IMG/VR virus record: IMGVR_UViG_2740892258_000006 | From: a virus | Lineage: Duplodnaviria > Heunggongvirae > Uroviricota > Caudoviricetes | Reading direction: 5' to 3' (one strand) | DNA length: 16,486 bases | Shown here: positions 1 to 16,486 of the stretch, piece by piece | Layout of the letters: each line of letters opens with the position of its first letter | Position numbering within the stretch: the first letter of the stretch is position 1 | Position numbers and translations under genes: made by a program | Notes under the pieces: model-generated | The model's input: the letters and a program-made list of their open reading frames with translations, nothing else | Databases searched by the model: none | Told to the model about the DNA's origin: nothing

Positions 1-158
1 AGGAATAAGGCAAACCCAAGCGGTGCTTTCGACTGCACCATCCCCTGCGCAGCCATTACATCCGTAATTGTTAAACCACCCGAGCCTGTCGCCGATGCGT
101 CATCGCTCAATTTTGGAGATTTTGGGGAGTAATATTTCGGTAAGGCTTCAAGGTTCAT
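1..158 (-). CDS. Q: Antitermination protein Q (lambda Q-type), N-terminal 52 codons; gene runs off the left edge
   Basis: ATG at 158-156 with GGAG 7 nt upstream; translation MNLEALPKYYSPKSPKLSDDASATGSGGLTITDVMAAQGMVQSKAPLGFALF closely parallels the lambda Q N-terminus as I recall it (MRLESVAKFHSPKSP...GTDVMAAMGMAQSQAGFGMAAF). Confidence 0.7.
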   Translation of the reverse strand, partial: MNLEALPKYYSPKSPKLSDDASATGSGGLTITDVMAAQGMVQSKAPLGFALF

Positions 159-171
159 GCTCGTTCTCCAC

Positions 172-1077
172 TTACACCAGTACGCCAATTGCCAGCGCAC
201 GATCGATAAAACGAAATATCAGCTCCAGCTGGGAGCCATACATCTCTTCAAATGCCACGGTATCCGCATGCAGCTCGTCGTGATGCTTTCTGCACAAAGG
301 CAACACAAAAAGGTCATGCGCTTTTGTACCCATTCCACCCTGTCCGTGGCCTATCAGGTGGTGGGGATCATCAGCGGGCTTTCCACAACATGCACACGAC
401 TGTGTCTTAACCCAGCGCGTGTACTTTTCATTAACCCAGCGGCGACGTTTTGGGCGTAACATAAAAGACTCCGGCGACTCCGGATCCACTTTCAGCGCCA
501 GCACCTTTTTCGCCTTATCCTGGATGATGCTGGTGGCAGGAACCGAAGGCACAAGGTCACTTTCCCGGGTGACAGACGGCACAACAGGCTTCGGTAATCT
601 CAGTGCCTTACGGGCTGCACTTTCCGGTAAGGCATCCGCCAGATCATTACGAACCAGCCACCAGCACAGTTCCGGCATTGTCACAACGTGACTGTCATCA
701 AAACCGAGATCCCGACGCACAACAGACAACACCCAGCGGGCACAGTTATCCGTTGCCATTGATTCCAGCCGTTCCGTGAACTGATCGCGAAGCAGGTTAT
801 CGCAGTGCCAGCACAGACGGATTGCGCCCGGCGCGTGTCGCATTGTGGTCATGTTCTCGCTGTGCCAGTCGGAATGAGGCCACTGACAGCCCTTTTCACG
901 AAGTAACCAGCTTTCAAGACATTCCACACCCCCCGCACGACGAATAACTGCCTCATTGCGGAACACGGCCCGAATGGCAGGATCATCCGCCAGCGGTTGT
1001 GATGCCGCCGGAACGGCACCACTGGCAAAAGATGAATAACGTTCCGGCTCAGGCTCCAGCAGGACACGCCCCTGCAT
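172..1077 (-). CDS. Phage protein with C-terminal Cys/His zinc-finger/HNH-like motif (DUF968-like, tentative)
   Basis: 301-aa ORF; C-terminal CACCGKPADDPHHLIGHG...LCRKHHDELH motif; sits between KilA-N gene and Q; start may lie further upstream (see finding on T6 run at 1119-1124). Confidence 0.6.
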   Translation of the reverse strand: MQGRVLLEPEPERYSSFASGAVPAASQPLADDPAIRAVFRNEAVIRRAGGVECLESWLLREKGCQWPHSDWHSENMTTMRHAPGAIRLCWHCDNLLRDQFTERLESMATDNCARWVLSVVRRDLGFDDSHVVTMPELCWWLVRNDLADALPESAARKALRLPKPVVPSVTRESDLVPSVPATSIIQDKAKKVLALKVDPESPESFMLRPKRRRWVNEKYTRWVKTQSCACCGKPADDPHHLIGHGQGGMGTKAHDLFVLPLCRKHHDELHADTVAFEEMYGSQLELIFRFIDRALAIGVLV

Positions 1078-1243
1078 AAACAGCCGAACATGCAGCCTTT
1101 CGCCGTCAGCGACCAGAATTTTTTGATGTTGTTAATCGCTGTACGGCTGTATCGTTCGCGCTGTTCGACGATCCCCAGCTTCGCCATCTGGTGATATGCC
1201 TGATTAGCCGTAAGGCGGATACCATACTGTTTCAGCAGTGCAC

Positions 1244-1692
1244 TCAGCGACAGTGTCGGGCGACTTGAGCCATCAGGCGCGTCAGCAGGAGCATCAATGG
1301 CATAGCGCGGTGCGGTGTGCTGGTTACCATATCGAAAGTACGGATCACCTTCAGATGGAATGACGGGCTTATCCACATTGCATAGGCATACACCAGTTCT
1401 TTGCAGACATACGTCCCCTGGTTATTTCCGCCACGAATAACGTTAACTGGCTCTATATTGACCGAGTTGCAAATCTGCAACTCGCTTATTAAACGTTCAG
1501 TTTGCTCATTGCGGAGCCAGAATGCAGGCTTATGCTTATCCAGAGAACCGGCAGCCCTGTGCAGATCGTTCAGGCTGTAACGCCCATAAGCATCACGACG
1601 AACTTCAATACCATCTGCAGATCGTTCAGGCTGTAACGCCCATAAGCATCACGACGAACTTCAATACCATCAATAACCATCAGATTATTCAT
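1244..1692 (-). pseudogene. KilA-N domain protein (antirepressor-like), frame broken by a 56-bp tandem duplication
   Basis: ATG at 1692 with GGAGAAACGAAGT upstream; MNNLMVIDGIEVRRDAYGRYSLNDLHRAAG... joins ORF 1244..1480 (…ICNSVNIEPVNVIRGGNNQGTYVCKELVYAYAMWISPSFHLKVIRTFD) only if one copy of 1560-1671 is removed. Confidence 0.55.
1560..1671. repeat. Perfect tandem duplication, 2 x 56 bp (1560-1615 = 1616-1671)
   Basis: Identical copies read directly from sequence; inside KilA-N gene. Confidence 0.95.
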
Positions 1693-1711
1693 ACTTCGTT
1701 TCTCCTCTTAA

Positions 1712-2157
1712 TCAGGCAGCTGCACCCGCCGTTTTCTCGTACTTACTGATAGTGATCTCGACCTTCCCTTCCGGGATAACCGGTCCCCACTCCACCAGCA
1801 TTCTTTTCACCTGACTGTCGTCTTCCCACACACCCGCGTGGGTCAGGGCGTCAAACAGCGCCTTGTTATAGTTGTCCAGATCGCGGATCCGGTTATCCGG
1901 AGGAAACAACACGATCTCCACTGAAGCAGGTGCCGACGTTGGTTTCGGTTATCCGGAGGAAACAACACGATCTCCACTGAAGCAGGTGCCGACGTTGGTT
2001 TTGGCAGACGACGTAACTGCTCAACTATTGCTGCACACGCCGCGCTCTGGAATTTGCGCCCCGCCGCGCTTATCAGGCTCTTACCAGCAAACGCCCCTTT
2101 GTTGGGGTGTCGCCAGTACGTGTTCACGCTGGGCGGAAACGGCAGAATCAGCTTCAT
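1712..2157 (-). pseudogene. rusA: Holliday-junction resolvase RusA, frame broken by a 56-bp tandem duplication
   Basis: ORFs 1843..2157 (MKLILPFPPSVNTYWRH...) and 1712..1921 (...DNRIRDLDNYNKALFDALTHAGVWEDDSQV...) join into about 129 aa RusA-like protein when one duplicated copy is removed; ATGA stop/start overlap with upstream gene. Confidence 0.7.
1890..2001. repeat. Perfect tandem duplication, 2 x 56 bp (1890-1945 = 1946-2001)
   Basis: Identical copies read directly from sequence; inside rusA. Confidence 0.95.
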
Positions 2158-2480
2158 ACTTTCAGGCCCCTCTCATGTAACCAGTGGGCTGCACGCAGCC
2201 TGGCGTTTTCCTTACCGGCAAGCAGTGAGCGGATAATCCCGACCGCCTCGCTGTCGTCGTCCTTCACCGCGGTATGAAGAGTGATACCCCGGGCCACGCC
2301 ACGCTTTATCGTGATGACGCCTTTTTTCTCCAGTGCTCGAAGATGCTCCACCGCTGCATTCACTGAACGGTATCCCAGCATGGTTGCCACCTCCTGATTG
2401 GTTGGCGGGAAGCCACGTTCTTTCTGATAAGAAATCAGCATATCCAGCACCTGCTGCTGGCATTGAGTTAACGTCGTCAT
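2154..2480 (-). CDS. LexA N-terminal DNA-binding-domain protein (winged helix), phage regulator
   Basis: 108 aa; MTTLTQCQQQVLDMLISYQKERGFPPTNQEVATMLGYRSVNAAVEHLRALEKKGVI parallels LexA N-terminus; ATGA overlaps with neighbours on both sides. Confidence 0.65.
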   Translation of the reverse strand: MTTLTQCQQQVLDMLISYQKERGFPPTNQEVATMLGYRSVNAAVEHLRALEKKGVITIKRGVARGITLHTAVKDDDSEAVGIIRSLLAGKENARLRAAHWLHERGLKV

Positions 2481-3130
2481 GCCGCCATCTCCCTGAGCAG
2501 TTTTTCCGCCTGCTGGCGAACCTGCGCCAGAAACGCCTCACCACATGCCTCAAGTTCATCGCGCCCGATGTAGCTGATTGCCGGTCCCTTCCAGGTCTTG
2601 TCAAAAACAGCAATAGCACCAGCGAAGAAAGCTCCTGTCGGCACCTGCTTCTCGTCTTTCGGGATAAACCAGACAGGCAGTTCAAAACCAATACGCCCGC
2701 GAATAAAAGCAATATGATCTGCATCTTCCGGCCACCACACTTCGCTGGTGGCAGCTTTGATCAGGAAAACATAGCGCCCGCCTTTATCACGCATGGCACT
2801 GGCATGCTTCATGATGTAACGCATGCCGGTGATGTATTGCCCCTCATGCTGACTGGCGCGGCTGTATGGGGGATTACCAAAGGCAGCACCTTTAAGCTCC
2901 GCAAGACGTTCTGACCAGTCATGCGCCAGCGCATTGTCTTCCGCCGTGTAATACGCGGCACATTTGGCGTTACCACCGTCGGTGAACAGATCCAGAACAA
3001 ACGGGCCAAACAGGGTGTTAATTCCCCAGAAAATGTTGTCCGGCGTGCGCCACTGATCGCCCACTTCCTTCAGTTCATGGGCTGGTTTGTTCCGCAGCTC
3101 CACCAGCGCCTGGCAATATTTATTACTCAT
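2477..3130 (-). CDS. Phage DNA N6-adenine methyltransferase (Dam-like, orphan)
   Basis: NPPY motif (AFGNPPYSRA); start taken at ATG 3130 (MSNKYCQ...) where TAATG overlaps upstream stop; ORF track extends to 3163. Confidence 0.7.
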   Translation of the reverse strand: MSNKYCQALVELRNKPAHELKEVGDQWRTPDNIFWGINTLFGPFVLDLFTDGGNAKCAAYYTAEDNALAHDWSERLAELKGAAFGNPPYSRASQHEGQYITGMRYIMKHASAMRDKGGRYVFLIKAATSEVWWPEDADHIAFIRGRIGFELPVWFIPKDEKQVPTGAFFAGAIAVFDKTWKGPAISYIGRDELEACGEAFLAQVRQQAEKLLREMAA

Positions 3131-3624
3131 TAAGCCCCCACGTAATTCCCTGACAGATACCACTCTTCACCCGATGCAGCGCGCTTGCTGCTTTTCCGTA
3201 AGCACCGCTCACGACGCGCCAGAAAATTGTTTCGTTCTGGCTGGGAGTGGCTTTCACGGAATGCCGCCATCCACACGGTTGCAGCACGACGGTATAAACC
3301 CCTGGACTCCAGTTCTTCAGCCTGGCGGGTCAGGCACAAAATCACCCGTGGATCGTTAGTGCCGACATAGAAATTGCGCACAGGTCTGGTTTCTCGAACT
3401 GGTTGTGGTTCCGGTTCCTGCGCTCTCTCAGTCAGGCGCGGGAAATGTCTGCGTGTATCTCCTTCACAACGGTGAGCCACACGCCCACTCTGACGTAACT
3501 TGCTTGCTGACTGCAGAACGCGCTGTCGTGAGTAACCTGCAAAAGCATCCGCAATGTCACCGGAAGTACACCCCGGATGGGCTTCAATGAATTTCTGAAC
3601 GTCATTTAACAGACTCATGATCAC
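3130..3624 (-). CDS. Phage regulatory protein, C-terminal half PerC/Pch-like
   Basis: LESRGLYRRAATVWMAAF resembles the PerC-family GLWRRAA..W motif; N-terminal half looks winged-helix-like; GTG 3624 or ATG 3618 start overlapping upstream TGA. Confidence 0.5.
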   Translation of the reverse strand: MIMSLLNDVQKFIEAHPGCTSGDIADAFAGYSRQRVLQSASKLRQSGRVAHRCEGDTRRHFPRLTERAQEPEPQPVRETRPVRNFYVGTNDPRVILCLTRQAEELESRGLYRRAATVWMAAFRESHSQPERNNFLARRERCLRKSSKRAASGEEWYLSGNYVGA

Positions 3625-4154
3625 CCCCTGAATCCTGCCGGGATCTGGCTGTAGTCCACGTTGTCGTAACTGGCTTTGAAGTACGGGTCCTCGCGTTTTT
3701 CGGTGTACGTACTTACGGACGGCGATAAGCGCAGGGAAAGCTCATCCCATTTTTCCCGCAGCTTCGACGGGCTGAGCACGTTACGGCACCAGAACGGATC
3801 GCGGCTGACGCGGCTGTACATCTCGCAGATTTGTTTGTGAGTACGACCATCCTGCACACACATCAGGCGAATTTCGTTTGCCCAGGCTGTCCAGTTCGGT
3901 TCTTTGGGACGAACCACCTCGCCGTCACATTCGGCAGCCTGCTCGTACAGGGCGATGATTTTTTTCCAGAGCCACTGTGCGCAGGTCAAATCATCCTGCG
4001 TTCCCCACTGGCGCTTTTTAGGGCTGAATACAACAGCATCAGGATGGCGAGTTAAAAACTCCTGTTCAGCCGTCTGCGTGTCCGGTTGCGAAGCGTCCGG
4101 ACGAGAAGTTTTTTTCAGTTGCGAGCGACGGTAGTGTGTTGTTAAACTGTTCAT
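3621..4154 (-). CDS. Hypothetical phage early protein (177 aa), function not assigned
   Basis: Intact ORF, translationally coupled (ATGA) to upstream CII-like gene; Trp/Cys-rich C-terminal region. Confidence 0.55.
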   Translation of the reverse strand: MNSLTTHYRRSQLKKTSRPDASQPDTQTAEQEFLTRHPDAVVFSPKKRQWGTQDDLTCAQWLWKKIIALYEQAAECDGEVVRPKEPNWTAWANEIRLMCVQDGRTHKQICEMYSRVSRDPFWCRNVLSPSKLREKWDELSLRLSPSVSTYTEKREDPYFKASYDNVDYSQIPAGFRG

Positions 4155-4238
4155 GCGTTAGTTTCTCCACAGTCACGACACGCCACGGCGCCCGGAGCTG
4201 CACACTCGCGGGCGTCACTACTTTCTGAAACGCAAAAG

Positions 4239-4338
4239 ATTTTGTAGACCAGTGCTGCATGCTCCTGCAGCTTCGAAATTGAGAGGTAATTTTGTAGACC
4301 AGTGCTGCATGCTCCTGCAGCTTCGAAATTGAGAGGTA
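4239..4338. repeat. Perfect tandem duplication, 2 x 50 bp (4239-4288 = 4289-4338)
   Basis: Identical copies read directly from sequence. Confidence 0.95.
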
Positions 4339-4545
4339 CAGCTCATCGTTAATTGCTGTCTTCTCATGCGGTTCCACTACACCGTCTTCAATTGCTGAAC
4401 GAATCTGTTTTGAATAACTGCCGATCTGTTCAATGACCTCCAGCAGGCGTTGGTTGATATCGGCGTTGTCCACATCCTCGACGTCAGGAAGAGACACAAA
4501 GACGCCATTTGCAGACTGCGCCACAGCATCAGCAATGAAGTGAGT

Positions 4546-4567
4546 GCCACCAGCACGCCACCAGCAC
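4546..4567. repeat. Perfect tandem duplication, 2 x 11 bp (ccaccagcacg, phase ambiguous by one base)
   Basis: Read directly from sequence; both flanking ORFs encode RAGG across it. Confidence 0.85.
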
Positions 4568-4806
4568 GCTGTAAAACCATTGCCCATCCCAGCGGGAAAA
4601 TCTGATCGCCATCTGCACGAAGGCGGTTGAATAAAGCGTTTTCTGTTACATCGAGCCAGTCAGCCGCTTCAGCGTAACCACCCGGCAACGCCGCGATCGT
4701 TTTTCTGACAGCTTTCACGTACCACTCAGGCTGTTTTTCTATTTTCCAGTGATGCTTACCCACGATTAGCCTCATCGTTCTGTGGTTAAAAATTGAAAGT
4801 GTTCTG

Positions 4807-5007
4807 CTAATCTTTCGGATAGATATCCGGTCTTAAGTCAGATTTCGTAATTGCACCTGACGTGCATTGCTCAAGTTTTTTAGCCAGCACAAAACTGGCT
4901 TTTTTATAGCCATTGAAAACCAGCCGTAAGTAGCCAGGTGTTGAGCCAACTTTTCCGGCCAACTCGCCCTGCTGTTCTTTGGTTAAAGAGTCCCAATACG
5001 CTTTCAT
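4807..5007 (-). CDS. cro: Cro-like small HTH repressor
   Basis: 66-aa ORF (MKAYWDSLTKEQQGELAGKVGSTPGYLRLVFNGYKK...) divergent from cI-like gene; GGAGG upstream; start at 5007 within longer ORF 4807..5310. Confidence 0.6.
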   Translation of the reverse strand: MKAYWDSLTKEQQGELAGKVGSTPGYLRLVFNGYKKASFVLAKKLEQCTSGAITKSDLRPDIYPKD

Positions 5008-5013
5008 ACAATG

Positions 5014-5079
5014 TGTACCTCCGGTGTACATATTACATGATTGAAATGAACCTTCAAGATACTTGTACCTTAACGGTAC
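5014..5079. promoter_or_regulatory. Immunity-region operators and divergent promoters: O1 TGTACCtccggTGTACA (5014-5030), O2 TGTACCttaacGGTACA (5063-5079); PR-like -10 TAATAT (5030-5035) and -35 CTTGAA (5053-5058) on minus strand
   Basis: Two 17-bp dyad sites sharing TGTACC half-sites between divergent cro and cI starts; 17-bp spacer between -35 and -10. Confidence 0.5.
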
Positions 5080-5097
5080 AAGGGTTTTAATTTCGTT

Positions 5098-5772
5098 ATG
5101 AAAACAATCCATGACATCCGGCGGTCTAACGCCAGAAAACTGAGAGATGGTGTTGGCGGGAATTCTTCCTTTGCCACTATGATTGATCGCGAGCCAACCC
5201 AGACCAGCAGGTTTATGGGAGATGGTGCTACTAAAAATATCGGTGACAGCATGGCACGACACATCGAAAAATGTTTCGACCTGCCTGTCGGATGGCTCGA
5301 TCAAGAACACCAGACAACGAACATCACAAAAAAACCTGATGTTTCAATCACTAATAAACAAATCACATTAGTCCCTGTCATATCATGGGTACAGGCCGGA
5401 GCATGGAAAGAAGTTGGATATTCTGAGGTTGATTTGAGCACAGCAGAAACGTATCCCTGCCCTGTACCCTGTGGGGAAATGACTTATATCTTGCGGGTGA
5501 TAGGTGATTCAATGATTGATGAGTACCGCCCGGGAGACATGATTTTTGTCGATCCTGAAGTACCTGCCTGCCACGGTGACGACGTTATTGCATTGATGCA
5601 CGATACAGGTGAAACCACCTTCAAAAGGTTGATAGAAGATGGGACACAGCGTTATCTCAAAGCGTTAAACCCAAACTGGCCTGAGCCTTACATTAAGATC
5701 AACGGTAATTGCTCTATAATTGGTACTGTGATTTTCTCAGGAAAACCAAGAAGATACAAAATCAAAGCCTAA
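5098..5772 (+). CDS. cI: CI-like prophage repressor (HTH N-terminus + S24 LexA-type peptidase C-terminus)
   Basis: C-terminal GDSM Ser motif and downstream Lys (TFKRL) of S24 autopeptidases; divergent from cro. Confidence 0.8.
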   Translation: MKTIHDIRRSNARKLRDGVGGNSSFATMIDREPTQTSRFMGDGATKNIGDSMARHIEKCFDLPVGWLDQEHQTTNITKKPDVSITNKQITLVPVISWVQAGAWKEVGYSEVDLSTAETYPCPVPCGEMTYILRVIGDSMIDEYRPGDMIFVDPEVPACHGDDVIALMHDTGETTFKRLIEDGTQRYLKALNPNWPEPYIKINGNCSIIGTVIFSGKPRRYKIKA

Positions 5773-5784
5773 TCAATGTTTATG

Positions 5785-5807
5785 AACCTGCTTCGGCAGG
5801 TTTTTTT
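5785..5807 (+). terminator. Rho-independent terminator after cI (aacctgc-ttcg-gcaggtt + T7)
   Basis: 7-bp GC-containing stem, 4-nt loop, T-run. Confidence 0.7.
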
Positions 5808-5924
5808 ATACTTGACAATGTACCTTTGAGATACATAATGTACCCAAGAGAAACAACAAACAGGCAGGACGCCCACGAAGTAGCCGCCTGGGGCATATGA
5901 AGTCCAGGATGATTCGTTAGCAAC

Positions 5925-5947
5925 AAAAAAGCGCCCTATAGGACGCT
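5925..5947 (-). terminator. Rho-independent terminator for the LprI-like gene (agcgucc-uaua-gggcgcu + U6 on minus strand)
   Basis: Hairpin with one G-U pair followed by T6, 28 nt after the stop. Confidence 0.55.
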
Positions 5948-5974
5948 TCGCTCTTTAACAATCTGGATGACTTA

Positions 5975-6487
5975 TTACTCAGATTTGAACTTTGGTTCTG
6001 GCAAAAGAGGAGGAGTTGAGTCCTCGAATCGTAGCCAGTGCTCCCAGATATCGTGGGATTGTAATTCCAGAAGACCAATTTGACGTGATGCAACTGCAGT
6101 GCCAGCTATAGTTCCTCCTGCATAATCAACCTGGACGGACTTTGACGCTTTCTCAATTAATTCTGTCCAAGCTTCACTTTCCGCGTTAAAAGAAGCAGTT
6201 AATTCCTGCAGACGCTGTGGATCATCCTTGTTGTCTTGTTTCAAACGATTCAGGGCGGCCACCGAATACTTATTCTTAACCCAACTAACCTGAGCTAACT
6301 GAACTCTCTGACAAGCGTCCATATCAGTAGTTGTTTCCTGAGGCATATCAAAGCAGGAAATAAAAAAAGTCTCAACACCATCATTTAGACTACTGCTCGG
6401 CTGGTTCAAAGCATCAGAAGCATTGGATGCTATCGGTATTATCAGTGCTACCGACAGAATCAAACGTTTAACATAAATCGCTCCCAT
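5975..6487 (-). CDS. Secreted/periplasmic protein with signal peptide, LprI-like (DUF1311) fold suspected; moron
   Basis: N-terminal MGAIYVKRLILSVALIIPIASNA signal-like sequence; Cys...Cys and Trp/Tyr spacing reminiscent of DUF1311; antisense to surrounding operon; own terminator. Confidence 0.5.
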   Translation of the reverse strand: MGAIYVKRLILSVALIIPIASNASDALNQPSSSLNDGVETFFISCFDMPQETTTDMDACQRVQLAQVSWVKNKYSVAALNRLKQDNKDDPQRLQELTASFNAESEAWTELIEKASKSVQVDYAGGTIAGTAVASRQIGLLELQSHDIWEHWLRFEDSTPPLLPEPKFKSE

Positions 6488-6968
6488 TTAATTATCCCCT
6501 CTAAGAACAGAGTCATCCAGATTAGCCGAATCCTTGTTGTTGGGGAATAACCAGGCCCACCTCGCCTGATGTGGCTAAAAGCAGGCACATAACAGCTAAG
6601 TATTTTCAACCAGAGAGAATCCTTAGCGTTGTGGTGAATGCGGCTCAGCGCACGCGGGTTAAGGTTGAGGCTGACAGTCGACCTTCTGTGGATACCCACC
6701 CGCCTGGTGTGCAACCTTCGCCAGGCACCGGGAGGCACCCGGCACCACAACTTTATGCTGTGTGTAGTCCTGGCGGTACCAGCATGCCCTTATTTCTGCT
6801 CAGGGTGTTAATGAAATTATCAGTAAGATTGGTGCCGACGCAGTGGCATTACCTGAAAATTTCCGCATTCATGATCTGGAAAAATTTAATTTAAATCGCT
6901 TCCGTTTCCGTGGTGCGCTTTCCACTGCCAGCATCGATGACTTTACCCGTTATTCTAAAGATCTTGCG

Positions 6969-7080
6969 GATGAAGGCACCCGCTGCTTTATCGATGCCGA
7001 TAATATGCGTGCCGTCAGTGTGCTGATGAAGGCACCCGCTGCTTTATCGATGCCGATAATATGCGTGCCGTCAGTGTGCT
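6969..7080. repeat. Perfect tandem duplication, 2 x 56 bp (6969-7024 = 7025-7080)
   Basis: Identical copies read directly from sequence. Confidence 0.95.
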
Positions 7081-7204
7081 TAACCTGGGTACTATTGATG
7101 AGCCTGGTCACGCAGATAACACCGCCACTCTCAAACTGAAAAAGACAGCACCGTTCTCTGCTCTGTTGTCTGTTAATGGCGAGCGTCATTCCCAGAAGTC
7201 ACTG

Positions 7205-7316
7205 GCAGAATGGATTGAAGACTGGGCCGACTACCTTGTGGGCTTTGATGCTAATGGTGAGCAGAATGGATTGAAGACTGGGCCGACTACCTTGTGGGCT
7301 TTGATGCTAATGGTGA
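7205..7316. repeat. Perfect tandem duplication, 2 x 56 bp (7205-7260 = 7261-7316)
   Basis: Identical copies read directly from sequence. Confidence 0.95.
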
Positions 7317-7980
7317 TGCCATTCAGGCAACAAAAGCGGCTGCGGCAGTCCGTAAAATCACGATTGAAGCAAACCAGACCGCTGATTTTGAAGACAATGA
7401 CTTCAGCGGCAAACGCTCCCTGATGGAGTCTGTCGAAGCGAAGACCAAAGATATTATGCCAGTGGCATTTGAATTTAAATGCGTTCCGTTTGAAGGCCTG
7501 AAAGAACGTCCGTTTAAATTACGCCTCAGCATTATCACTGGCGATCGTCCTGTACTGGTTCTGCGCATTATTCAGCTGGAAGCAGTGCAGGAAGAAATGG
7601 CTAACGAATTTCGTGATCTGCTTGTTGAGAAATTCAAGGACAGCAAAGTAGAAACCTTTATTGGTACTTTTACCGCCTGATTTCATTACTGCAAATGCCC
7701 CTGCGGGGGCATTTATGGAAACGTAATTGACTCAATAATCGCCGGATGGTGAGGGCTTTCTTTTACCAGAATTCAGCGCGGTGCAGCGCATATACGTGGA
7801 GAACAAAATGTCATTTATTAAAACTTTTTCCGGGAAGCATTTTTATTATGACAGGATAAATAAAGACGACATCGTTATTAACGATATCGCGGTTTCTCTT
7901 TCAAATATCTGTCGCTTTGCAGGACATCTTTCACATTTCTACAGCGTCGCCCAACATGCGGTGCTTTGCAGCCAACTGGT

Positions 7981-8092
7981 ACCGCAGGAATTTGCTTTTG
8001 AAGCGTTAATGCATGATGCAACAGAAGCGTATTGCCACCGCAGGAATTTGCTTTTGAAGCGTTAATGCATGATGCAACAGAAGCGTATTGCC
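7981..8092. repeat. Perfect tandem duplication, 2 x 56 bp (7981-8036 = 8037-8092)
   Basis: Identical copies read directly from sequence. Confidence 0.95.
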
Positions 8093-8222
8093 AGGACATC
8101 CCCGCGCCGCTGAAACGCCTTCTTCCTGACTATAAACGGATGGAAGAAAAAATAGACGCCGTAATCCGTGAGAAATACGGGTTACCCCCGGTTATGAGTA
8201 CGCCCGTGAAATATGCCGATCT

Positions 8223-8334
8223 CATCATGCTGGCAACCGAACGCCGCGATCTCGGGCTTGATGATGGCTCTTTCTGGCCATCATGCTGGCAACCGAACGC
8301 CGCGATCTCGGGCTTGATGATGGCTCTTTCTGGC
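8223..8334. repeat. Perfect tandem duplication, 2 x 56 bp (8223-8278 = 8279-8334)
   Basis: Identical copies read directly from sequence. Confidence 0.95.
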
Positions 8335-8552
8335 CCGTACTGGAAGGTATCCCGGCAACAGAGATGTTCAAAGTTATTCCACTGTCGCCAGGCCATACCT
8401 ATGGGATGTTTATGGAACGCTTTAAAGAGTTAACTGAGTCGTAAAAATCAGCACGTACGAATTCAAACTCTGCCATAAAAGAACATATAAGTAATTTATT
8501 AACATATAGATATAGGTTATATTACAAATTGAAAAATTATTGGAGAGCAACA

Positions 8553-9419
8553 ATGAATCAAAATCCATTCTCATTCTATGACTTTCTTGGATATTTAATA
8601 CCAGGTGGTTTTTTTATCCTATTAATGTATTTCTGTGGTTTGACATTCGATCTAGATATTGTTATTGACTTAAGTGAATTGCTCAGAGGTCAAAGTCAAA
8701 TCTTTGGCATTTTGAACTACGCTTCAATAGTTATTATATCTTATATAGCTGGACATTTTATTTCTATCACGTCAGCATTTTTTATCGAAAAATACATGAA
8801 TAAAGAATTAGGATATCCTTCCAAATATCTATTTAAAAAATTGATAGATACCTCAGAAAGCATTTGTAGCCCATCATGCGATGAGAGAAGCGCTGATAAA
8901 AAAACAAAAATAAAGAATCGCATAATCAAATGCGTATTATGTCCAATAATACTATGGGATTTTATAACACAAAAACTATGTTATTCTCAATCTCTACCAT
9001 TTCATTTAGCTAATACAACATGGTTAATGATCAAAGAAGGTTATGAGAAAAAGTTCATAACAAATCGCCAATTATTACAAGATAAAAACGGACTTGATGA
9101 TGATCTCTTCAGATTGGCATATCATTATGTTTATGAGTTTTCAAAACAACATCAAACAAAAATTCAAAACTATGTTGCATTATATGGTTTTTGCAGAAAC
9201 ATATGTTTAATCTTTATAATTTCATTTTGGGTATCAGTTCCAACCTTTATTTATCGATTATGTACTCATAGTGATTATCTTTATAGTTTACTTTCAATAA
9301 TGCTTAGCTTTTTCTTCGTCTATGTTTTCTATGTTGGTTTTGTTAAATTTTATAGAAGATATACTTTAGAAGTATTAATGGCATTTGCTGTACTTCAAAG
9401 TAACGACACTATTCGTTAA
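8553..9419 (+). CDS. AT-rich multi-pass membrane protein (4-5 predicted TM helices), moron of unknown function
   Basis: ATG 8553 with GGAGA 7 nt upstream; hydrophobic segments FLGYLIPGGFFILLMYF, IFGILNYASIVIISYIAGHFI, ICLIFIISFWVSVPTFIY, LLSIMLSFFFVYVFYVGFV; strongly AT-rich versus neighbours. Confidence 0.6.
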   Translation: MNQNPFSFYDFLGYLIPGGFFILLMYFCGLTFDLDIVIDLSELLRGQSQIFGILNYASIVIISYIAGHFISITSAFFIEKYMNKELGYPSKYLFKKLIDTSESICSPSCDERSADKKTKIKNRIIKCVLCPIILWDFITQKLCYSQSLPFHLANTTWLMIKEGYEKKFITNRQLLQDKNGLDDDLFRLAYHYVYEFSKQHQTKIQNYVALYGFCRNICLIFIISFWVSVPTFIYRLCTHSDYLYSLLSIMLSFFFVYVFYVGFVKFYRRYTLEVLMAFAVLQSNDTIR

Positions 9420-9460
9420 TAATGTTGCTCCCGTGTGCAGACGGGATAATGGAGAAACGT

Positions 9461-9667
9461 ATGCTGAACCTCGATTGTGTTCCTATCTCAACTTATTGCA
9501 AAGAAACTGGCGAAACTCCTGAAGCAATAAACAAACGTGTACAGCGCGGTGTTTGGCGTGAAGGTGTTCAGGTTTTAAAGGTTGAAGGCGTTAAGGAGAG
9601 GTGGATTGATCTTAGTGAGGTTGCAAAATGGGCCAGACAAAACTGCTCAAACTACCGCGCGGCGTAA
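9461..9667 (+). CDS. xis: Excisionase-like protein (Xis)
   Basis: Small basic protein directly upstream of and overlapping int; start at ATG 9461 (GGAG 6 nt upstream) within ORF 9422..9667. Confidence 0.6.
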   Translation: MLNLDCVPISTYCKETGETPEAINKRVQRGVWREGVQVLKVEGVKERWIDLSEVAKWARQNCSNYRAA

Positions 9668-10800
9668 CAATCAGGAAACACCACCAGGGAGAAACGATCA
9701 ATATAACTTTCACCTACAAAGGAGTTAGATGTCGTGAGCCGCTTTCCAATCTGGAAGTAACACCAAAGAACATTAAATACGCCGAGCGTACACTCGGCGA
9801 AATCCATAATAAGATCGAAAGGGGAACATTCATTTATGCAGAATATTTTCCCCGTTCTGCTCGTTTGAAAATTTTTGGTAATGCTGCTGCAAGCAAAACG
9901 GTAAAGATGTACCTGGACGAATATCTTGAAATCTGCGAAACAAGAAAACTTTCACCCTCTACGATTGGTGGCTATAAAAAATGCCGTAGTGCGTTAGCCT
10001 CACTTCACATTTGCCCTGCAAGTGAATTAACACCAGCAACCCTGAAAGCGTGGATTCAAAGCCAGAAAACAACCTTAAAAACCATTCGCAACCAGTTATC
10101 TTTCCTACGGTCAGCACTTGATGAAGCCGTGACCGATGGGGTACTTCAAATTAACCCCGTATCGTTAGTAACAGCTTCGCGCTACCAAAGTGATAAGTCA
10201 GAAGCAGAAAGCAGCTATGTGGTTGATCCGCTATCACCAGCAGAAGTTGATGCATTACTAGCAGCAGCCGGAAACAAACAATGGGAAAATCTGTTCCGGT
10301 TCGCCATACATACAGGCCTGCGTAGTTCTGAATTATGTGCCCTACGATGGCATGATATCGACTTTGTTGGAAAAACAGCCCATGTTCAGAGCGCAAGTGT
10401 TGTCGGAGTTATCAAAGGAACAAAGACAAAAGCCGGTACCCGTAAAGTTGAACTGACTGAAGAAGCAATGTTGGCGTTGATAAACCAGAAGCCATTTACA
10501 TTCATGAAGGATGCTACTGTCTTTGAAGATCCAAAGACCAATAAACCCTGGGCAAGTGCTGATGCAATTAGGAAAAAAGCATGGGTGCCAACATTGCGAA
10601 AAGCAGGTATTCGTTACAGAAACCCATATCAAACCAGGCATACATTCGCCACCAGCCATATCAGCCGGGGAGCAAACCTGTTTTGGCTTGCGGCTCAAAT
10701 GGGCCATAAAGGGCCTGAAATGTTATTCAGGCACTATGGACAATACTTGAAAGAGTATGATGGGAGGGCAAGTATCAAGGATAAAAAGGCTTTATTTTAA
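9628..10800 (+). CDS. int: Tyrosine site-specific integrase (lambda-type with N-terminal arm-binding domain)
   Basis: 390 aa; catalytic-domain signatures HTGLRSSELCALRW (Arg), RHTFATSH (His-x-x-Arg), GHKGPEMLFRHYGQY (His...Tyr). Confidence 0.9.
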   Translation: MGQTKLLKLPRGVTIRKHHQGETINITFTYKGVRCREPLSNLEVTPKNIKYAERTLGEIHNKIERGTFIYAEYFPRSARLKIFGNAAASKTVKMYLDEYLEICETRKLSPSTIGGYKKCRSALASLHICPASELTPATLKAWIQSQKTTLKTIRNQLSFLRSALDEAVTDGVLQINPVSLVTASRYQSDKSEAESSYVVDPLSPAEVDALLAAAGNKQWENLFRFAIHTGLRSSELCALRWHDIDFVGKTAHVQSASVVGVIKGTKTKAGTRKVELTEEAMLALINQKPFTFMKDATVFEDPKTNKPWASADAIRKKAWVPTLRKAGIRYRNPYQTRHTFATSHISRGANLFWLAAQMGHKGPEMLFRHYGQYLKEYDGRASIKDKKALF

Positions 10801-11409
10801 GTCATTATGCCAATCGTCTACTGTTTGAAACCAAATTTTTAACCTTTGCATAAAGGTACGATCCTTTTTGGGAGGGTGGTACCTTTGAAAAGAAGTATGT
10901 AACGCTTCGATAACTCCCATACAAGCATCAATTACTTCTTGTGCTTTAACCGGGCGATCGGCATCTGAAAGCTTGTGAGCGACCTCACAATCCAGAGTTG
11001 CTTTCTCTAGTACAGATGAGAACACCTCGTCAGGTATATACAGTCCTCTGCTTTCCAAAATGCAAATCAGTTTGGAAACTTGTTGAGCTTTAGCCAAGAT
11101 AGTTAACAAGTATGAAACAGAAGCCTTTGTTCTATCCTTTTGCAACCTTAACAATCGATGCTTTGATGCTCTAATTTTAGGTTGAGTTGTCTGACTGAGC
11201 CAATAGTTAGAAGAAATATCAGAAATTTCAATAACTAACTTTGAAATAGCATCAATAATTGATTTCGATTCAGAACGTGTCGCCAGTTTTACAGAATTAT
11301 TGTACGCAACTCGCCATCCAATGAAAACTAAGCAGACGCTAACTACTGTGATACACCACGAATACTGTCCTATTTGTGCTACTAATGACATTGGTTCCGT
11401 ACTGATCAA
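10792..11409 (-). CDS. Cargo operon gene C: membrane-anchored protein (one N-terminal TM helix, helical soluble domain), unknown function
   Basis: TTG start at 11409 with AAGAGG overlapping upstream stop (alternative ATG 11391); TM segment YSWCITVVSVCLVFIGWRVAY; 3' end overlaps int by 9 nt. Confidence 0.6.
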   Translation of the reverse strand: MISTEPMSLVAQIGQYSWCITVVSVCLVFIGWRVAYNNSVKLATRSESKSIIDAISKLVIEISDISSNYWLSQTTQPKIRASKHRLLRLQKDRTKASVSYLLTILAKAQQVSKLICILESRGLYIPDEVFSSVLEKATLDCEVAHKLSDADRPVKAQEVIDACMGVIEALHTSFQRYHPPKKDRTFMQRLKIWFQTVDDWHNDLK

Positions 11410-11419
11410 CTATCGCCTC

Positions 11420-11746
11420 TTATACTCTTTCTGGTTGTGCTAAATCAATAAATTTATCAATCTGTTCTTTGTAGAACGGAACATCACTTTTTATAATCAA
11501 ACGTGCTTTAACGTTGGCTTTAGGTATCCCTTCCTTACGGATGAGACCTCCAAACGCCTCTTCTAAGAAAGAGGAACCAACACCCAGTGCTATACCGCGA
11601 AAATCAACCACAATCTCCTGTTCAGTACCCTTCAGCGCAGGCACCAAAAACTCTCTACGAAATCTTTCCGCACTGTGTGGGCTATCCGTTGTGTAACGTC
11701 CGAAAGGTGTTCTGGAGAACTCCTTCGCTATGACGATATTTCTCAT
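11420..11746 (-). CDS. Cargo operon gene B: small STAS-like protein (DUF4325-like, tentative)
   Basis: 108 aa; AGGAG 8 nt upstream of ATG 11746; motif EIVVDFRGIALGVGSSFLEEAFGGLI resembles STAS-like DUF4325 as I recall it; 4-nt gap to gene A. Confidence 0.6.
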   Translation of the reverse strand: MRNIVIAKEFSRTPFGRYTTDSPHSAERFRREFLVPALKGTEQEIVVDFRGIALGVGSSFLEEAFGGLIRKEGIPKANVKARLIIKSDVPFYKEQIDKFIDLAQPERV

Positions 11747-11750
11747 AAAA

Positions 11751-12662
11751 TCATCTCCTGGGAACCAGCGACCATTGTAGTAAAGTACCCGGTATGTACT
11801 CAGCTAGCTTCTCACATCGAGGACTACTGTCATTAGAATTATAGCTATAACGAGCCCTTCCTGTTAGTATCAGAAGTGTCTCATTATCCTCACAACCTGC
11901 CCCAATAGGTCTCTTGATATCTTCAGAGCCATTTCCCCGTCCGGAACCAACAAAGCGGGATTCCCCTACTAACATAGCTCTTTCCACAGAAGATACTTCG
12001 TTTTGAATGCTATGACCATCACCATTAGGCACGAAACTTCTATAAATCCCCAATCCAAGGTCACAAACGATAAAAACGACTTTATTTTCATCACGATTGA
12101 ACCAAGCGCACTGCCACCATCGTTTACCTTTGAGAAGCTGAATATCTGACTCGAACCCCTCATCTTCATACGCATGATGAGAAACATTGAGCAAAGCTTC
12201 ACTAATCGCTGTCAGCAGTAAGCCTAACTGTTCATTATTAAGCAGAGCACTTTTCTGCAGCATGAGTACTGTTTCAACAATATGCTCGTAAGGTTCGACA
12301 GCTGACTGAAAGTATCGTTCCTCCCTCGTAAGTGCATTCAGTTTCTCTTCTGTGCCAGCAAGCAAAGCACGAGCAAGTCCAGTACCAACGATCCATCTAT
12401 GCCCAGATGGGTTATCATCCTTTTTAGGCCATTTAAAACGTATAAAATTAGGGTCCCGGGTTAAAAATTGAGCTCTATTTACTATGGCAAAGAACAGTAC
12501 CGATGCCGCAGCTGAGGCAAATTTTACCTTGGACAAATCAACTATAACTCGACCTTTATTTTTTACTCCAATCGATTCAATCGAGTTGATGAAGTTCAAT
12601 GTCCCAGCCCTAGAATCATCTGAGTAAATGCAAAATTTGCTTGGGGGTACCAGTATGGTCAT
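11751..12662 (-). CDS. Cargo operon gene A: GHKL (histidine-kinase-like) ATPase with unassigned N-terminal domain
   Basis: 303 aa; Bergerat-fold motifs in the C-terminal half: N-box EALLNVSHHA, G1 CDLGLGI, G2 GSGRGNG. Confidence 0.65.
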   Translation of the reverse strand: MTILVPPSKFCIYSDDSRAGTLNFINSIESIGVKNKGRVIVDLSKVKFASAAASVLFFAIVNRAQFLTRDPNFIRFKWPKKDDNPSGHRWIVGTGLARALLAGTEEKLNALTREERYFQSAVEPYEHIVETVLMLQKSALLNNEQLGLLLTAISEALLNVSHHAYEDEGFESDIQLLKGKRWWQCAWFNRDENKVVFIVCDLGLGIYRSFVPNGDGHSIQNEVSSVERAMLVGESRFVGSGRGNGSEDIKRPIGAGCEDNETLLILTGRARYSYNSNDSSPRCEKLAEYIPGTLLQWSLVPRR

Positions 12663-12813
12663 AGCGATGTCATTCTTATACGATGGATTTATAGATTATC
12701 TACTATTCATAGTTGGTTATGAAGACTGGGATATAACAGTAAAAGATACGTGTAAGATCCGCAAGATAGTTAATGTCGAAAAAATCATTAATTACATCAA
12801 GTTAGTGATATTT

Positions 12814-12851
12814 GGACTCGGGTTCAACTCCCGCCAGCCAATCATGATTGG
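12814..12851 (+). other. Candidate att remnant: 25-nt match to the 3' end of tmRNA/ssrA (GGACtCGGGTTCAACTCCCGCCAGC) followed by perfect palindrome CCAATCATGATTGG (12838-12851)
   Basis: Recalled E. coli ssrA 3' end is ...GGACGCGGGTTCAACTCCCGCCAGCTCCACCA; one mismatch here and divergence after CAGC. Confidence 0.55.
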
Positions 12852-12970
12852 ACGGTGTAAGGACTACACCAACAAAAACAGGAAGTTATAAGTCTCAGCA
12901 GGACACCGACCAGACGGTGAGGAGACAAAAAAGGATACGCAACGGAGTCGCGACTCCCTATGACATTAAA

Positions 12971-12993
12971 GCCCGCTGATGCGGGCTTTTTTA
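12971..12993 (+). terminator. Rho-independent terminator (gcccgc-tgat-gcgggc + T6)
   Basis: Perfect 6-bp GC stem, 4-nt loop, T-run; lies about 130 bp downstream of the ssrA-like fragment. Confidence 0.65.
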
Positions 12994-13299
12994 TTGGTCC
13001 TGACCCGCCCTGAATAGAATTCATCCAATTACAGTCCAGACATATACAGTATCCCTCAGCTCAGTATCAGCTTCTCGACAAATGGTCACTGTTATTTACC
13101 CGTTGCCAGAAAGAGAATAATTTGCCCCCATAGCCAGCCTTCCCGGAATCTGTATATTCATTAATATTGTTATCGATTCCATCAAGTAACATAGGTTGGA
13201 TGCGATTGATCTTACTCACATTAGTCGACACGGAACTCAGTAAGTTGAACTCTGAAAAAGCAGTTTAAATAGCATTTAAACAAATGCCACCAGTTCGAA

Positions 13300-14500
<1,201 letters not shown>

Positions 14501-14519
14501 GCGCAAAGGAATTGAGCGG

Positions 14520-15788
14520 ATGTATGATTTTTTGATTATTGGCGGCGGCATCATCGGCATGTCGACCGCCATGCAACTAATTGATGTTTATCCGGATGCC
14601 CGCATAGCGTTGCTGGAAAAAGAGCCCGGCCCGGCCTGTCACCAGACGGGCCACAACAGTGGCGTAATCCATGCCGGGGTCTATTACACGCCCGGCAGCC
14701 TGAAGGCGCAGTTTTGCCTGGCAGGAAACCGCGCCACCAAAGCCTTTTGCGATCAAAACGGTATTCGCTACGACAACTGCGGCAAGATGCTGGTCGCCAC
14801 GTCTGAACTCGAAATGGAACGGATGCGCGCCTTATGGGAACGCACGGCGGCGAACGGAATCGATCGCGAGTGGTTAAACGCCGAAGAGCTGCGCGAGCGC
14901 GAACCAAATATCACCGGGCTGGGCGGTATTTTTGTGCCGTCCAGCGGCATTGTCAGCTACCGCGAAGTGACGGCGGCAATGGCAAAAATTTTTCAGGCCA
15001 GAGGCGGTGAGATTATCTATAACGCCGAAGTCAGCGCCCTCAGTGAGCATAAAAACGGCGTGGTGATATGTACCCGTCAGGGCGGTGAATATGAAGCATC
15101 GACGCTGATTAGCTGTTCCGGGCTGATGGCTGACCGGCTGGTGAAAATGCTCGGCCTCGAACCGGGCTTTATTATCTGCCCGTTCCGCGGCGAGTATTTC
15201 CGCCTTGCGCCGGAGCATAACCAGATTGTTAACCACCTGATTTACCCCATTCCCGACCCGGCAATGCCGTTTTTGGGCGTGCATCTCACCCGCATGATCG
15301 ACGGCAGTGTGACCGTCGGGCCAAACGCGGTGCTGGCTTTCAAACGCGAAGGCTATCGTAAGCGCGACTTCTCATTTAGCGACACGCTGGAAATTTTGGG
15401 CTCGTCGGGGATTCGCCGGGTGCTGCAAAACCATCTACGCTCAGGACTGGGCGAGATGAAAAACTCGCTGTGCAAAAGCGGCTATCTGCGGCTGGTGCAA
15501 AAGTATTGTCCCCGGCTTTCGTTAAGCGATCTCCAGCCCTGGCCCGCCGGTGTGCGGGCGCAGGCGGTATCGCCGGACGGCAAGCTGATTGACGATTTTC
15601 TGTTTGTCACCACCCCGCGCACGATCCACACCTGTAATGCGCCCTCCCCGGCAGCGACATCAGCAATTCCTATTGGTGCGCATATTGTCAGCAAGGTACA
15701 AACGCTGTTGGCAAGCCAGAGTAACCCCGGACGCACGCTGCGAGCGGCACGTAGTGTGGATGCCTTACACGCCGCATTTAATCAATAA
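14520..15788 (+). CDS. lhgO: L-2-hydroxyglutarate dehydrogenase/oxidase LhgO (FAD-dependent)
   Basis: 422 aa from ATG 14520 (AAGGA upstream); FAD-binding LIIGGGIIG motif; ORF track extends upstream to 14454 overlapping csiD. Confidence 0.9.
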   Translation: MYDFLIIGGGIIGMSTAMQLIDVYPDARIALLEKEPGPACHQTGHNSGVIHAGVYYTPGSLKAQFCLAGNRATKAFCDQNGIRYDNCGKMLVATSELEMERMRALWERTAANGIDREWLNAEELREREPNITGLGGIFVPSSGIVSYREVTAAMAKIFQARGGEIIYNAEVSALSEHKNGVVICTRQGGEYEASTLISCSGLMADRLVKMLGLEPGFIICPFRGEYFRLAPEHNQIVNHLIYPIPDPAMPFLGVHLTRMIDGSVTVGPNAVLAFKREGYRKRDFSFSDTLEILGSSGIRRVLQNHLRSGLGEMKNSLCKSGYLRLVQKYCPRLSLSDLQPWPAGVRAQAVSPDGKLIDDFLFVTTPRTIHTCNAPSPAATSAIPIGAHIVSKVQTLLASQSNPGRTLRAARSVDALHAAFNQ

Positions 15789-15810
15789 CCTTTGAAAACA
15801 GGATGTAGCG

Positions 15811-16486
15811 ATGAAACTTAACGACAGTAACTTATTCCGCCAGCAGGCGTTGATTAACGGGGAATGGCTGGACGCCAACAATGGCGAGGTCATCGACGTC
15901 ACCAATCCGGCGAACGGCGACAAGCTGGGTAGCGTGCCGAAAATGGGCGCTGATGAAACCCGCGCCGCTATCGACGCCGCCAACCGCGCCCTGCCCGTCT
16001 GGCGTGCGCTCACTGCCAAAGAACGCGCCAACATTCTGCGCAACTGGTTCAATTTAATGATGGAGCATCAGGACGATTTAGCGCGCCTGATGACCCTCGA
16101 ACAGGGCAAACCACTGGCTGAAGCGAAAGGCGAAATCAGCTACGCCGCCTCATTTATTGAGTGGTTTGCAGAAGAAGGCAAACGTATTTATGGCGACACC
16201 ATTCCCGGTCATCAGGCCGATAAACGCCTGATTGTTATCAAGCAGCCGATTGGCGTCACCGCGGCTATCACGCCGTGGAACTTCCCGGCGGCGATGATTA
16301 CCCGTAAAGCCGGTCCGGCGCTGGCGGCAGGCTGCACGATGGTGCTGAAGCCCGCCAGTCAGACGCCGTTCTCTGCGCTGGCGCTGGCAGAACTGGCGAT
16401 TCGCGCGGGCGTTCCGGCTGGCGTGTTTAACGTAGTCACCGGTTCGGCGGGCGCGGTCGGTAACGAACTGACCAGCAACCCGCTGG
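15811..16486 (+). CDS. gabD: Succinate-semialdehyde dehydrogenase GabD, 5' partial (continues beyond window)
   Basis: ATG 15811 with AGGA upstream; MKLNDSNLFRQQALINGEWLDANNGEVIDVTNPANG...; aldehyde dehydrogenase N-terminal region; no stop before window end. Confidence 0.9.
   Translation, partial: MKLNDSNLFRQQALINGEWLDANNGEVIDVTNPANGDKLGSVPKMGADETRAAIDAANRALPVWRALTAKERANILRNWFNLMMEHQDDLARLMTLEQGKPLAEAKGEISYAASFIEWFAEEGKRIYGDTIPGHQADKRLIVIKQPIGVTAAITPWNFPAAMITRKAGPALAAGCTMVLKPASQTPFSALALAELAIRAGVPAGVFNVVTGSAGAVGNELTSNPL

Follow-up and report, generated by a model that had tools for sequence, protein, structure and literature searches.

The stretch of DNA analysed here (the window, 16,486 nt) is the whole of an NCBI draft contig, CVOH01000132.1 (GCA_001245225.1), and it crosses the early region of a prophage of lambdoid type, which lies beside glaH and lhgO in UTI89 and in many other E. 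coli. The prophage genes are those for an antiterminator, a DUF968 protein, a KilA-N protein, RusA, a LexA-like protein, Dam, PerC, the ymfL, ymfT and ymfK products, the yfdP, yfdQ and yfdR products, and an integrase. Bases 1–11077 of the window agree with the public record base for base, and the anomalies described below therefore belong to the deposited sequence, which, from the WGS prefix of the CVOH01 record, may have come from a bulk submission to the ENA.

Within this region, rusA is interrupted by an exact repetition of 56 bp, and the features concerned are the following:

1712–2157, minus strand: rusA, RusA-family Holliday-junction resolvase gene of the lambdoid prophage, interrupted, 446 nt
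1843–2157, minus strand: ORF of 104 aa with an ATG start, N-terminal part of RusA with a frameshifted tail
1712–1921, minus strand: ORF of 69 aa with a GTG start, C-terminal part of RusA
1890–1945: copy 1 of the exact 56-bp tandem duplication in rusA, identical to 1946–2001
1946–2001: copy 2 of the same duplication; the BLAST blocks against UTI89 break at 1945/1946

The gene occupies 446 nt in the window versus 390 nt (129 aa) in UTI89 (WP_000767113.1), and when one copy of the repeat is removed what is left is a 390-nt gene identical to the UTI89 rusA. The duplicated unit, in coding orientation, is made up of nucleotides 157–212 of the gene, codons 53–71 (KPTSAPASVEIVLFPPDNR), with the acidic motif RDLDN directly downstream of it, and the extra 56 nt shift the frame in such a way that the gene, as written in the record, is broken after codon 71. 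The first-pass annotation, made from the letters of the window, had proposed an exact identity between 1890–1945 and 1946–2001, located inside rusA and splitting its product into the two ORFs listed above, and on these points the sequence bears it out: TRF gives a period of 56 with 2.0 copies and 100% matches, our own scan, which compared each base with that 56 positions further on (s[i] = s[i+56]), shows a match here over exactly 56 bases, both ORFs are found on the minus strand, and the restored frame encodes a protein that covers the RusA family profile in full and aligns to known RusA structures. The three further matching bases that it had added to the repeat are a mistake, because the bases on both flanks differ (C at 1889 against T at 1945, and T at 2002 against C at 1946).

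As regards the product, the restored protein matches Pfam PF05866 with 56.4 bits (cut-off 22.8) from position 1 to 123 of the 124 in the profile and, when aligned to the E. coli RusA structures 1Q8R and 2H8C, keeps the acidic motifs RDLDN and DD. We take the active-site acidic residues of the E. coli RusA to be Asp70, Asp72 and Asp91. The window as written differs from the family in its broken frame: RDLDN and DD come after the frameshift, on the separate ORF of 69 aa, which is the only one still fitting the profile (45.5 bits, positions 77–123 only) and provides the sole family match of the interrupted gene, while the 104-aa ORF has no match in Pfam. The exact 104-aa frameshifted ORF is not on record, and in its place the gene caller gave a 65-aa rusA fragment.

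The origin of the repeat by chance was considered and is ruled out by the exact 56-mer itself (an adjacent copy would be expected at about 4^-56 per site) together with the homologous stretch of UTI89, which is free of the repeat: our scan of 20.8 kb of UTI89 found no exact tandem duplication with a period of at least 10. In the BLAST comparison, window 1616–1945 corresponds to positions 3390–3719 of the UTI89 reference (L002) and window 1946–4115 to positions 3664–5833, in both cases at 100% identity, and since the two blocks overlap on the reference, its positions 3664–3719 occur twice in the window.

The reading of the repeat as a lone event in rusA, which had been that of the first-pass annotation, finds no support, as the same kind of 56-bp duplication is present at five other sites of the contig; what survives of that interpretation is the description, at sequence level, of a split RusA. 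TRF and our scan together found eight exact tandem duplications in the window, six with a period of 56 and the other two with periods of 50 and 11, all with copies that are 100% identical, and the comparison with UTI89 adds four deletions and two groups of substitutions, which, with gene names taken from the UTI89 gene coordinates, are as follows apart from the rusA repeat:

1083 (junction): deletion of 185 bp relative to UTI89, removing the start of the DUF968 gene and the end of the KilA-N gene; 1 bp shared
1313 (junction): deletion of 145 bp relative to UTI89, inside the KilA-N gene; 1 bp shared
1560–1671: exact 56-bp tandem duplication in the KilA-N gene, 330 bp before that of rusA
4115 (junction): deletion of 756 bp relative to UTI89, removing the N-terminal part of an HTH protein gene and the whole DUF4222 gene; 1 bp shared
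4239–4338: exact 50-bp tandem duplication in ymfL (TRF, scan, BLAST against UTI89)
4546–4569: 11-bp tandem duplication (GCCACCAGCAC x2.2) in ymfL, with 11 bp fewer in UTI89
6783 (junction): deletion of 640 bp relative to UTI89, removing yfdP and the start of yfdQ; 1 bp shared
6969–7080: exact 56-bp tandem duplication in yfdQ (scan, BLAST against UTI89)
7177–7189: three substitutions relative to UTI89 (7177, 7187, 7189), in the 236-bp piece between duplications
7205–7316: exact 56-bp tandem duplication in yfdQ (TRF, scan, BLAST against UTI89)
7981–8093: exact 56-bp tandem duplication in yfdR, match run 57 (TRF, scan, BLAST against UTI89)
8103–8109: two substitutions relative to UTI89 (8103, 8109), in the 242-bp piece between duplications
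8223–8335: exact 56-bp tandem duplication in yfdR, match run 57 (TRF, scan, BLAST against UTI89)

Against UTI89 the window falls into 12 collinear BLAST blocks, whose limits are seven overlap duplications, four deletions and one 11-bp insertion, the long blocks being 99.8–100% identical to the reference if the 11-bp insertion is set aside. All twelve events are confined to window positions 1083–8335, about 7.3 kb within the early region of the prophage, and BLAST found none relative to UTI89 in the last 8.2 kb of the window (integrase, cargo and host genes). The pieces that lie between the events measure 230, 303, 330, 174, 269, 242, 236 and 242 bp, in the midst of longer blocks. The units of the 50-bp and 56-bp duplications are all single copy in UTI89. 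The match runs are of 56 at four of the period-56 sites and of 57 at the other two, so there is no flanking microhomology beyond that expected by chance; at the deletions, exactly one base is shared at all four junctions, which according to our own calculation would happen by chance with a probability of about 0.006. As for the substitutions, there are eight relative to UTI89 across the 16.5 kb, and five of them are within two of the short pieces flanked by duplications: the 236-bp piece, with three, has no 100% match in complete genomes (best 98.4%), nor does the 242-bp piece, with two (best 99.4%). Three other pieces adjoining duplications (1313–1615, 1616–1945 and 4115–4288) are 100% identical to UTI89. 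The remaining substitutions, which are the sole differences not located in short pieces, are two adjacent ones at 868–869 in the DUF968 gene (GT, versus TC in UTI89) and a single one at 14264 in glaH.

These junctions do not seem to be found in any other sequence that was searched. Taken as 56-mers, the seven duplication and four deletion junctions give no match in 5,426 complete E. coli genomes, and that of rusA likewise gives none in the viral, GTDB-genome and JGI-metagenome contig collections. A query of 1,101 bp over the rusA stretch, for which 106 records reach at least 99% identity, aligns, in each of the 15 records listed, with 989 bp at 100% identity, and both 56-bp units are therefore single copy in those records. 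Similarly, a 141-bp query over the 11-bp duplication gives 92.2% identity in the complete genomes listed, as expected if the 11 bp are missing there, and a single record at 99% or more, which lies outside the matches listed. At protein level, each of five aberrant products of the events (301, 177, 122, 98 and 40 aa) is on record on CVOH01000132.1 only, among them the 177-aa ORF that spans the deletion junction at 4115, while the neighbouring LexA-like protein of 108 aa, which is intact, has 8,525 indexed blocks, and in all ten of the places shown an intact RusA of 129 aa comes next. The 65-aa C-terminal fragment of RusA is called in 188 blocks, complete genomes included; at the ten such loci that were inspected, however, the 56-bp duplication is absent, and diverged rusA alleles or other lesions are found instead, for which reason these fragments lend no support to a recurrence of the event. 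One of the complete genomes, CP027452.1 (L016 2873–2928), has a diverged rusA, about 91% identical, with a 24-bp tandem repeat (run 32) and a further 1-nt gap, and here gene calling is limited to the 65-aa C-terminal fragment. In some genomes, then, rusA may be genuinely disrupted, through different lesions.

The stretch is, moreover, a repetitive one. Between the KilA-N and rusA duplications lies a piece of 330 bp that is found at two places in UTI89 and at up to three in the other genomes listed, and the stretch is therefore multi-copy in UTI89-like genomes. An unrelated scaffold, assembled from short reads and containing a related prophage (L024; GCA_001816295.1, KV825529.1), is broken over the KilA-N/rusA stretch into contigs of 230–407 bp separated by N gaps, with breaks that lie about 30–90 bp from the events of the window. 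Seven runs of N, of 10–340 N, are present in this scaffold between its positions 1983 and 4849, and two of its 10-N gaps join contigs that abut with no base missing (reference L002 3773/3774 and 3482/3483).

Since the eight repeats and the four missing stretches are in no other E. coli record, the explanation that we favor is an error of assembly and not a biological process: the 56-bp tandem duplication in rusA would be a fault of the deposited draft assembly (GCA_001245225.1, CVOH01000132.1), and not a mutation of the bacterium, with a probability that we place at about 0.93. It is the pattern as a whole, with five sister duplications of 56 bp, one of 50 bp, one of 11 bp and four deletions, all unseen elsewhere, that points to the assembly and away from a mutation of rusA. 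Judging from the assembled sequences compared here, the junction is probably absent from the isolate, whose real genome would most likely have the 56-mer only once and encode an intact RusA of 129 aa with the same sequence as in UTI89.

The process could have followed a series of steps: (i) a short-read assembler, faced with a prophage early region of which partly homologous copies exist at other places in UTI89-like genomes, would have broken it into pieces of 174–330 bp; (ii) these pieces would be nodes of a de Bruijn graph, in which neighbours share an end of fixed length; (iii) the chaining of such nodes in scaffolding or gap closing, without trimming of the shared end, would have written that end twice and given rise to duplications of constant length; (iv) an intervening piece left out of a join would have appeared as a deletion; (v) and finally, nodes collapsed from two paralogues would have contributed the clustered substitutions. 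The length of 56 would be linked to k-1, as we infer, with the shared end being possibly k-1 = 56 for k = 57, or else an overlap of 55 nt plus one filled base; on a purely speculative level, the single base shared at all four deletion junctions might reflect a gap fill of one base. With a single overlap of fixed length, the duplications of 50 and 11 bp are left unaccounted for. A textbook bubble around a single variant, in which the first and last variants would be 56 nt from the ends of the pieces, was also considered and rejected, as the substitutions are not so placed.

As a point of comparison, a pipeline widely used for bacterial genomes in that period combined Velvet (with k at 66–90% of the read length), SSPACE and 120 rounds of GapFiller, tools that its own authors called greedy and prone to false joins (PMC5320598), and contig edges are, according to the GapFiller paper, a frequent source of misassembly (PMC3446322). 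To attribute the duplications and the 1-bp junctions to a specific behaviour of Velvet, SPAdes, SSPACE or GapFiller would be speculation, and our search of the literature for a description of the artefact gave only unrelated papers on eukaryotic assemblies, while one for the accession gave a paper on fungi, likewise unrelated. The likeness to the false duplications found at contig joins in short-read assemblies lies in copies that are exact and of one length at many places in a single assembly, in the repeat-rich prophage region divided into small pieces with segments dropped, and in junctions that no independent assembly of this sequence contains; the difference lies in the one unit of 50 bp and the one of 11 bp instead of 56.

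An alternative explanation for the rusA repeat is that it is a real duplication, produced by slippage or unequal exchange, that has inactivated the gene in a cryptic prophage undergoing decay. Decay is indeed known for genes of prophages, rusA is disrupted in other ways elsewhere (as in the 188 blocks with the 65-aa fragment and the 24-bp tandem repeat of CP027452.1), any one of the events, taken singly, could on the sequence alone be real, and the head-to-tail exact repeat in coding sequence with a shifted frame is just what is found in natural pseudogenes formed by slippage. However, short direct repeats usually flank the duplications that slippage produces, and natural tandem duplications vary in length and pass to relatives. 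The window departs from this on each count, firstly, because six sites have identical lengths of 56 bp, which is not expected of slippage, secondly, because microhomology is lacking at the flanks (runs of 56–57, and both flanking bases different at rusA), and thirdly, because no relative carries the event: among the relatives listed, those whose flanks are 100% identical have the unit once and encode an intact RusA of 129 aa, and the junctions and products of the events are in no other genome or contig searched. To this is added the unnatural ratio of twelve structural changes to eight substitutions in 16.5 kb. A real duplication is accordingly a very improbable explanation.

Less probable again is that the contig follows a chimeric path between strains of a mixed culture, or between two near-identical prophages, with the duplications marking the points of the switch and not being simple untrimmed overlaps. 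The substitutions clustered in short pieces, with combinations of alleles that are in no complete genome, would agree with this, as would the multi-copy nature of the region in UTI89-like genomes; but such a path is itself a variant of the artefact explanation that still needs an end of fixed length to be written twice, and the three short pieces beside duplications that have no difference at all from UTI89 argue against it. It is equally hard to credit that the duplications of 56 bp and the nearby deletions were real and repeated, and arose through some unrecognized mechanism able to gauge a fixed length, of which templated repair or insertion directed at the prophage would be an example. Finally, that the anomalies were added after deposition by in-silico editing or corruption, and are absent from the public record, is suggested by the resemblance of fixed-length duplications and deletions to simulated structural variants, but can be given practically no weight, being refuted for window 1–11077 by the identity with CVOH01000132.1 (also of 16,486 bp), whose stored gene calls already include the aberrant products, while window 11078–16486 has no anomalies.

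If the duplication is an error of the deposited assembly, as we believe it to be, its importance is one of data hygiene only, and it should not be regarded as a biological feature. A public draft contig would be carrying twelve structural errors in about 7.3 kb, by which no fewer than six intact genes of the prophage (DUF968, KilA-N, rusA, ymfL, yfdQ and yfdR) are converted into apparent pseudogenes and three more (the HTH protein gene, DUF4222 and yfdP) are removed or truncated by the deletions. Such errors feed singleton “orphan” proteins into the large protein collections, and the record would be misleading if it were taken as evidence of RusA inactivation or of prophage decay. In scans of genomes, several exact two-copy tandem repeats of one and the same period in a contig could serve as a cheap flag for misassembly, by which findings of this kind would be filtered out automatically.

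Between the prophage integrase and glaH, the window also carries three cargo genes on the minus strand (10792–12662), none of which has a match in PADLOC. They encode a 199-aa protein without family match, a 108-aa STAS-like DUF4325 protein and a 303-aa protein with a sub-threshold match to HATPase_c_2, and the last two are, by their sequences, reminiscent of a partner-switching pair.
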